A DNA stretch of 64,000 bases from Rhizophagus irregularis (Eukaryota). The stretch is from the NCBI RefSeq assembly GCF_026210795.1, contig NC_089436.1:558001-622000 (forward strand), in the 5' to 3' direction. The notes under the pieces are model-generated. The model saw nothing but the letters and a program-made list of their open reading frames with translations. It was not told the DNA's origin and made no database searches. The position numbers were made by a program, and so were the translations under genes. Below, piece after piece: positions 61,974 to 63,167 of the stretch (positions are counted from its first letter, which is position 1; each line of letters begins with the position of its first letter).

Positions 61974-63167
61974 ATGTCTCAAACACAACCAATACAACAG
62001 TTACAACTAGTTGCTATAAATATTAAAGAAGAGGTAAGTCATTTCCTTACTGGATGAGTTTTTTTTTAAAAAAAAAAATCTGATAAGTATTAGCTATAGA
62101 GTTACTTGGAGAAAGAGCAGAGAATCGGAAATTTTATACGAAACGTTCCTACTACCTTACAGGTATGGCCTAAAAATTATGCCGTATTTTAAGAGAATAT
62201 CACATTAAATTTTTGTATGATATTCCAGAGAAATGAAAAAAAAGGAAGAGAAAAAAAAGGAACCTTGGATTCTAAGTTGGAGACCGAATTGTTTGAGAAT
62301 GGAAATAGACGGAGTGATGATCCCAATTGCCACTCCATGGGATGTTCTTACCCTCCTTTATACAATCAACATTGGCGAACCTCCAATGCAGACTTTATTC
62401 GATTATCAGATAGAATGGCTGTATCGACATTTAAAACAGTTAGCGAAGTGGATAATGATTTTAGAGCCAATGCACATGAAGATACAACTATGGCCGACAG
62501 TAATAAATGTGGCGTGGAAATCAAACGACAAGGAAATCATGAAGGTCTCGTTCAGAGCGTCGCTAGTAGAAAACAGGAGTTCCAGAAAACAAATAGTAAA
62601 GTTTCGACAGGAAGTCGATTTAGAGAATCACCATCTCTTTCCTCGGGACAATCATGGGAATTTGGTAAAGAATCAAAAGCCCTGGCTGTTCGGAAATTGT
62701 GTTGAAGTGAATACATGGTTCCATCTAGCGTCCCAGATACCCGAGCTACCAATCAGAACTTTTGCAATAATAACAGAAATACAAAAAACGAAACCATGTT
62801 GCAGGAATTGCAAAACGGTGATGGCATGCAGAACACCAATGATCTTGCATCACTCATTAGATTATTGAAGGATAAAGAACAATATCGTGAAGAGACAAAC
62901 AAAGATGTCTTTACTAAAGGCGAGATCTACCTCTTCACCAAAATGTATGGCATTACTGATTTCAAACTCGTGTTTGCATACGATGATTCAGTCTTTTGGC
63001 TAGAAGACCATGATATTATTTATTTTTGGTCTCGCATAGATGATAGCATGATACGCGGAGGAAGAAATCTGAAAGAAGCTTTAACAAATTATCTTTTTAA
63101 TCAAAAAAATCTTTGTTATGTCGATGAGATTACTCGCGAATTGATATCAATAGATGCATATGATTAA
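61974..63167 (+). CDS. Spliced gene (frame A) ending in a SUKH-like immunity domain; one in-frame TGA at 62703
   Basis: Exons 61974-62033, 62100-62162 and 62229-63167 are phase 0 with GT-AG sites. ORFs 62217-62705 and 62715-63167 share a frame. The C-terminal VFAYDDSVFWLED..IIYFWSRIDDSMIRGGRNLKEALTNYL resembles the SUKH strand-meander plus final helix. Confidence 0.5.
62233..62868 (+). CDS. Zn-dependent deaminase-fold protein (YwqJ-like toxin deaminase candidate), frame B
   Basis: 211 aa ORF with FGNCVE (62689-62706) and KPCCRNC (62791-62811), i.e. [H/C]xE...PCxxC with typical spacing and an intervening strand IRTFAII. Confidence 0.6.
   Translation: MKKKEEKKKEPWILSWRPNCLRMEIDGVMIPIATPWDVLTLLYTINIGEPPMQTLFDYQIEWLYRHLKQLAKWIMILEPMHMKIQLWPTVINVAWKSNDKEIMKVSFRASLVENRSSRKQIVKFRQEVDLENHHLFPRDNHGNLVKNQKPWLFGNCVEVNTWFHLASQIPELPIRTFAIITEIQKTKPCCRNCKTVMACRTPMILHHSLDY

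Follow-up and report, generated by a model that had tools for sequence, protein, structure and literature searches.

In bacteria, deaminase toxins are paired with immunity proteins of the SUKH superfamily, those of the YwqJ clade with SUKH3/Imm6 (PMC3239186, PMC3113570, PMC13648612), and YwqJ is a cytidine deaminase acting on single-stranded DNA (PMC13648612). The wtf loci of Schizosaccharomyces each give two transcripts, of which the shorter begins within intron 1, and there are suppressors that encode an antidote only (PMC6283613). Post-fusion incompatibility is described in mycorrhizal fungi, with selective loss of one nuclear type proposed, and in the part of that source at hand vic/het loci are named for other fungi only (PMC12712441); a role of fungal deaminases in post-fusion incompatibility has been proposed as well (PMC3239186, PMC3482391). 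Here we describe a locus at the end of a 64,000-nucleotide (nt) stretch of the Rhizophagus irregularis genome (contig NC_089436.1, positions 558,001 to 622,000; "the window" below), in which a predicted zinc deaminase (frame B) lies within a second frame of the same strand (frame A) that continues into a predicted SUKH-fold domain. Dual coding of the overlap is, in our judgement, close to certain for the family to which this locus belongs.

An earlier note on this DNA had pointed to two overlapping frames, with a deaminase motif in one and a SUKH-like end in the other, and the sequence bears out the overlap and the motifs. The overlap of the frame B open reading frame (ORF) with frame A is 636 nt, frame B sitting one base downstream of frame A. 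Frame A is open over 62229-63167 save for one TGA (62703-62705), which overlaps the codon of frame B's catalytic Glu, and its end carries YFWSRIDD (63021-63044) and NLKEALTNYL (63066-63095). A and B alike are members of a multicopy family found in Rhizophagus, Glomus and Funneliformis, and the named homologs all come from these genera and Ambispora; no further paralog occurs within the window. A metagenome scan with two SUKH patterns, in which openness of the frames was no selection criterion, yielded two loci (L001 and L002) from 67 candidates. That both frames are open and linked in paralogs, as the note had supposed, was confirmed: L001 and L002 are stop-free in both frames across the overlap, and B's three zinc Cys are compatible with the frame-A proteins that cover them (26/26, 25/25 and 25/25; background 5.7%). 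Across the family the linkage of B and A is tight and conserved, as in toxin-immunity pairs.

The window DNA is AT-rich, and the window, L001 and L002 differ at 18-28% of positions. When B was held fixed and synonymously recoded, 10-17 stops were expected in frame A; one was observed in the window and none in either paralog, and 0/3000 recodings reached the observed count in all nine runs (three loci, three GC settings). With A fixed, 5-9 stops were expected in frame B and none was observed at any of the three loci (P at most 0.001), and T occupies 1/87 of the synonymous B sites at which it would create a stop in A, versus 104/288 elsewhere (Fisher P 2e-13), P values that overstate independence because the three loci share ancestry. 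The corresponding T usage in the SUKH-only part is 35/75, and the third sense frame holds 25, 21 and 18 stops at the three loci. In 21 frame-A proteins, P0001 being excluded as a chimera, pairs of Met with a following I, M, T, N or K, each of which forces a stop in B, number 3 versus a shuffled mean of 19.3. A single frameshifted gene, B then SUKH, was ruled out, as it would not hold A open over the whole overlap. For distant B homologs a dipeptide test of dual coding was weak even in positive controls (z -0.4 to -2.1), and no claim is made from it. Public gene models are frame A, or chimeras hopping between frames, and almost never frame B whole; many are chimeric, the usual outcome when a gene caller meets a dual-coding locus.

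Table 1. Parts of the dual-coding locus and its upstream neighbour (window coordinates).
Feature	Position	Strand	Remarks
MITE-like (miniature inverted-repeat transposable element) foldback element, 53-nt arms, 81% complementary	61454..61902	.	ends 72 nt upstream of exon-1 ATG
Exon 1 (MSQT...INIKEE)	61974..62033	+	GTAAGT donor at 62034; similar first exons in models P0032, P0043, P0027, P0017, P0007
Intron 1, family acceptor TAG 62091-62093	62034..62093	+	second AG at 62098-62099 gives the 66-nt intron of the earlier note
Exon 2	62094..62162	+	codes in both frames in the family: LW..LYETFL.PYR in B; A starts with an ATG at the exon's third base
Intron 2, 66 nt, GT..AG	62163..62228	+	contains in-frame frame-A ATG at 62217 (MIFQ), where models P0008 and P0020 start
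Frame A, overlap part, hydrophilic extension	62229..62843	+	kept open through the deaminase gene; interrupted in the window copy by TGA 62703-62705
Frame B, predicted zinc deaminase, 211 amino acids (aa)	ATG 62233 to TGA 62868	+	core ~62299-62830; GNCVE 62692-62706; PCCRNC 62794-62811
Frame A, predicted SUKH-fold domain (US22-like), likely antidote	62844..63167	+	structure model pLDDT (predicted local distance difference test) 90
Remnant of lysine-rich C-terminal tail, non-coding	63168..63272	+	most paralogs carry the tail; lost here by 19-nt deletion and early stop

Frame B very probably has the alpha/beta fold of cytidine deaminases, as the structure model indicates and as the note had proposed. 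Its motifs align in register with cytidine deaminase 2d30, and the window and homologs carry both signatures of zinc-dependent deaminases as a superfamily, with [HC]xE lying in helix 2 and PCxxC preceding helix 3. Frame B matches 48 proteins in a 50%-representative library at identities down to ~30%, many of them plain B frames. Blocks common to these homologs are WD..Y, HL.QL..W, P...N.SW, FGAS, LFPRD, GNC[AS]E and PC.NC, and a Met near the domain start is frequent; the window frame deviates at conserved sites (SFRAS for SFGAS, CVE for CAE/CSE). No family match was found in Pfam, NCBIfam or PADLOC, Foldseek of the B model against the PDB and viral models gave no significant match, and single-sequence PDB searches returned nothing useful. 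Bacterial polymorphic toxins carry a secretion or trafficking domain at the N-terminus; B consists of the deaminase domain preceded by a short leader, with no Pfam or NCBIfam domain. No relatives were found in prokaryote genomes, plasmids, phages or viral contigs, by searches that reach close relatives only.

The YwqJ label fared less well than the fold. The Gx[CH]xE motif in helix 2 that defines the YwqJ clade in Table 1 of PMC3239186 is present (GNCAE/GNCSE across homologs); the further traits compared for the clade are equivocal, frame B having an insert of ~45 residues and the His before LFP being common among homologs but substituted in many. The PF14431 (YwqJ) profile matched 0/36 alignment members at E 0.5, and an Atlas cluster containing 11% PF14431 scores 0.83 against B, which is a lead only. 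The motif thus stands, and membership of the clade is not established from these sequence comparisons. Twenty unnamed eukaryotic clusters in the Atlas resemble B, the top three mostly from Ascomycota, and the deaminase clade may extend more widely than mycorrhizal fungi. Three distant B homologs, P0076, P0078 and P0062, are annotated as plain proteins in Rhizophagus and Ambispora.

For the C-terminal domain of frame A, a SUKH fold is predicted with high confidence. The structure model has the helices and split sheet of the superfamily, comprising a hairpin and a four-stranded meander. The nearest named cluster is US22 (0.91), then SMI1/KNR4 and SUKH-4; SUKH-3 is not among the matches listed, and the domain had no match in Pfam. 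The SUKH-like end seen in the note therefore holds at the level of the superfamily fold; its assignment to SUKH-3 is not established, the nearest group being US22/SUKH-5. The SUKH end matched 30 longer proteins among 104 candidates, most of them frame A read end to end, and these end-to-end proteins are 51-82% identical to P0012.

Exon 1 (61974-62033) and exon 2 (62100-62162) of the window copy join frame A in phase 0 on paper via two 66-nt GT-AG introns, which is the entry from ATG 61974 that the note described. That description is right for the window copy and probably wrong for the family. The route uses the AG at 62098-62099 and crosses an 11-nt deletion, both absent from the two paralogs; it arises from this copy's damage, and it ends at the TGA. 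In L001 and L002, intron 1 ends at an AG aligned with 62092-62093, exon 2 then reads LW(T/R)YL toward B, and the third base of exon 2 begins an ATG of frame A. Models P0032, P0043 and P0033 likewise read exon 2 in the B frame, P0032 and P0043 directly after a window-like exon 1, and models P0011, P0012, P0014, P0016, P0018, P0021, P0023, P0028, P0029 and P0074 start at the exon-2 ATG. From these paralogs and models, exon 1 likely opens the deaminase in the family state, and the conserved exon-2 ATG the SUKH protein. The family acceptor TAG is in frame with exon 1, so that a transcript retaining intron 1 would lose B to this stop and still encode A.

L001 and L002, both from one sample, lack intron 2, and the first base of each aligns with position 62052, which lies 18 nt inside intron 1. 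This is a hint that they are assembled transcripts from an internal start in intron 1, with 62052 as a candidate transcription start. Splicing of intron 2 was seen in RNA of relatives, as a 66-nt GT..AG skip in a contig of run X5 and as junction letters in 4 reads of X23. Splicing of intron 1 was not seen in any RNA run, and exon 1 had no cover in 4/4 raw RNA runs nor in two RNA contig sets; the reads stem from diverged paralogs, so the missing cover is not evidence of absence. Reads of a paralog matching P0016 by eye are abundant over the SUKH part. One RNA-type contig of X5 starts in exon 2 at 62109 with a loose end, which may be a 5' end or a truncated cDNA; the loose end resembles a cDNA library adapter. 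A frame shift near the 5' end occurs in L001 (~109-115), L002 (~88-93), window exon 2 and P0043, always with the same net effect, that the exon-1 (toxin) frame runs into the antidote frame. These four shifts may be coincidental, may stem from faulty assembly, or may mark a path along which antidote-only alleles arise repeatedly.

In the window copy, neither frame is intact. Its exon 2 is 11 nt shorter than in the paralogs, with a stop in frame B at 62097-62099 and no frame-A start at 62096-62098; frame A holds the TGA, conserved B residues are changed, and the tail has lost 19 nt. The tail loss, through the deletion and an early stop, is shared at the protein level with P0001 and P0006-P0009. 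Sequencing error was ruled out as the source of these breaks: contigs of DNA runs X15 and X16 (two studies, one of which may be the source sample of the window) match it with 0 differences over 62028-62258, 62444-62844 and 63114-63293. Contigs of X5 and X6, ~97% identical, have C at 62702 and 62703, all contigs over 62703 reading C. Rescue of the TGA by A-to-I editing or readthrough is not favored, because close relatives have a sense codon there in DNA or RNA and the copy has several other breaks; no edited reads were seen at the TGA, though RNA barely covers this copy.

The note had held that nesting makes toxin and antidote inseparable, and the family contradicts this. B's catalytic Glu is possible in 14 of the 26 frame-A sequences and excluded in the other 12, in 11 of them via Arg-to-Gln in frame A; a conserved Gly of B is lost in 12/23 sequences. 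On a SUKH-only tree of 28 rows, Glu loss takes 8 changes most simply, at least 4 of them on well-supported branches, and sister pairs differ. Such repeated loss makes the pair separable and, at the sequence level, fits antidote-only derivatives; since the Glu codon lies at a CpG and an open A was the basis for choosing the sequences, it is not a demonstration of selection. Two single-base hinges join the frames. At 62096-62099 a conserved Trp codon of B and the start codon of frame A have bases in common. At 62703-62706 B's catalytic Glu shares the CpG with an Arg codon of A, so that the enzyme is killed by a transition on one strand, and the antidote is stopped by one on the opposite strand.

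That the two products are toxin and antidote, with the predicted deaminase B blocked through binding by the predicted SUKH-fold protein A, seems to us fairly probable; the account as a whole, that the window holds a broken copy of a mycorrhizal-fungal family of wtf-like poison-antidote loci, has slightly better than even prospects. The frame B product would damage nucleic acids, and the frame A product would inhibit it by binding. A long transcript from which intron 1 has been spliced would start at the exon-1 ATG and be read in frame B, giving the toxin, and a short transcript from within intron 1, or one retaining it, would use the exon-2 ATG and be read in frame A. Translation of frame A would cross the entire deaminase gene before reaching the SUKH domain and lysine-rich tail, and the tail may send the antidote to the nucleus. 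The long open extension of A would exist because an immunity cistron placed downstream is out of reach for a eukaryotic ribosome: a toxin-then-immunity pair would have been made translatable by extending the immunity frame back to the 5' end. The antidote would be made routinely and the toxin occasionally, most likely when unlike hyphae or nuclei meet, and a partner without the matching antidote would be harmed. Copies would often decay toxin first, giving antidote-only genes like the wtf suppressors.

Action at hyphal fusion or between nuclei is suggested tentatively; fusion of unlike hyphae is the preferred setting because post-fusion incompatibility occurs in these fungi and a role for fungal deaminases has been proposed. 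Somewhat more doubtful is the fullest form of the proposal, in which these are selfish nuclear genes, a bacterial toxin-immunity operon rebuilt for eukaryotic translation by overprinting. The poison would lie inside a nucleus-targeted antidote frame, intron 1 would be the switch, and the mix of armed and antidote-only copies would decide which nuclei or hyphae survive fusion. Shared cytoplasm is a real difficulty for nucleus-level drive. Against the case for two conserved frames, the ratio of nonsynonymous to synonymous divergence (dN/dS) is near 1 in both frames and in the SUKH-only part, with values of 0.86-1.32 across all three partitions. Because overlap and SUKH-only part behave alike, the suppressed synonymous divergence that the note had envisaged did not materialize, and it is uninformative as a test of dual coding.

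It is unlikely that B instead serves its host in defense, as an APOBEC-like mutator acting on viruses, transposons or endobacteria, with the SUKH protein as regulator or targeting adaptor. An action on selfish elements and on agents in the cytoplasm has been proposed for toxin-origin fungal deaminases (PMC3239186), transcripts of P0016, whose protein permits every one of the 15 B residues tested, occur in polyA RNA (matched by eye), and a signal peptide is not evident by eye. However, frequent loss of the catalytic Glu with A kept suits retention of an antidote better than a useful enzyme, and gene order and partner mirror bacterial toxin-immunity pairs. Less likely again is the same pair with another switch, in which one mRNA makes A from the exon-2 ATG, exon 1 is non-coding or unused, and B is reached by leaky scanning to an internal Met at the domain start, an alternative acceptor or a ribosomal +1 shift. 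The lack of exon 1 in RNA agrees with this, as do the common Met near the domain start of B homologs and the models (P0017) that connect exon 1 to frame A through the second AG. Yet in L001, P0032 and P0033 frame B can be read through exon 2 beginning with the exon's first base, L001 is without the second AG, and both zinc motifs lie in one frame here, so a shift is not needed to build the enzyme. Very improbable is a recently spread SUKH gene whose deaminase frame, left by an overlapped ancestor, is dying and now jobless: the Glu missing in 12/26 and Gly in 12/23, the dN/dS and the doubly broken window copy would suit it, but the three zinc Cys are kept in every sequence covering them across frame-A proteins of 51-82% identity, B is stop-free in both DNA paralogs, and its 48 matches, many of them plain B frames, reach ~30% identity.

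Upstream of the locus, the foldback element is repeated elsewhere, since reads join both of its arms on opposite strands in many variants; it is probably context and not part of the gene. Elsewhere in the window, five near-identical long ORFs of 481-496 aa stand in tandem at 28183-37282 on the plus strand, resembling BTB-BACK-TLDc genes, followed by an ORF at 37456-38937 that we take to be kinase/Sel1-like. ORFs at 7154-10609, where CpG is depleted (0.44), and at 24643-26467 resemble CACTA-type and hAT-type transposases, respectively, and a 310-aa ORF at 18131-19063 with an HxD...H pattern looks to us like a 2-oxoglutarate/Fe oxygenase. An AT-rich minisatellite (~82 nt) lies at 59580-60400, and a 54-nt inverted repeat with a 9-nt spacer at 60997-61113.

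Nuclear genes rarely show long, conserved dual coding on one strand, and gene callers hide it at this locus. If a toxin-immunity pair has been kept intact as one spliced eukaryotic locus, it would illustrate how a bacterial operon can come through transfer to cap-dependent translation. The family supplies named candidates for post-fusion incompatibility in mycorrhizal fungi and, if these are indeed selfish nuclear genes, would give the first molecular handle on such incompatibility and on nucleus elimination in coenocytic fungi. A new deaminase clade is also of interest as a source of editing enzymes. No description of this family or layout was found in searches of full-text literature, in which few subscription journals are represented.

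Compared with bacterial polymorphic toxin pairs, the locus is nuclear, spliced and multicopy and is without an LXG/RHS-type delivery domain; its immunity frame spans the whole toxin gene, its SUKH domain is nearest to US22, and a bacterial homolog was not found in our searches. Like wtf, it would give two products from one locus, the short transcript putatively beginning within intron 1, and its multicopy family is diverse and likely includes antidote-only members. Unlike wtf, whose poison and antidote share frame and sequence from two starts and whose short form is the poison (PMC6283613), this locus encodes unrelated products in different frames; its short form would be the antidote, and its poison would be an enzyme. 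The wtf loci are killer meiotic drivers; meiotic drive by the present family would be conjecture. Fast evolution and a proposed non-self or anti-parasite role are shared with toxin-origin fungal deaminases (OTT_1508-like expansions, basidiomycete YwqJ-like), which, in the part of PMC3239186 consulted, are reported neither from Glomeromycotina nor together with an immunity protein that is linked to them or overlaps them. At the killer locus Spk-1 of Neurospora, one transcript likewise holds two candidate ORFs, but killing there needs only one of them, which has no known domain, and conserved dual coding is not part of that account (PMC8092558). The parts of the present locus are of known kinds, and their nested, spliced, two-frame layout appears to be new.
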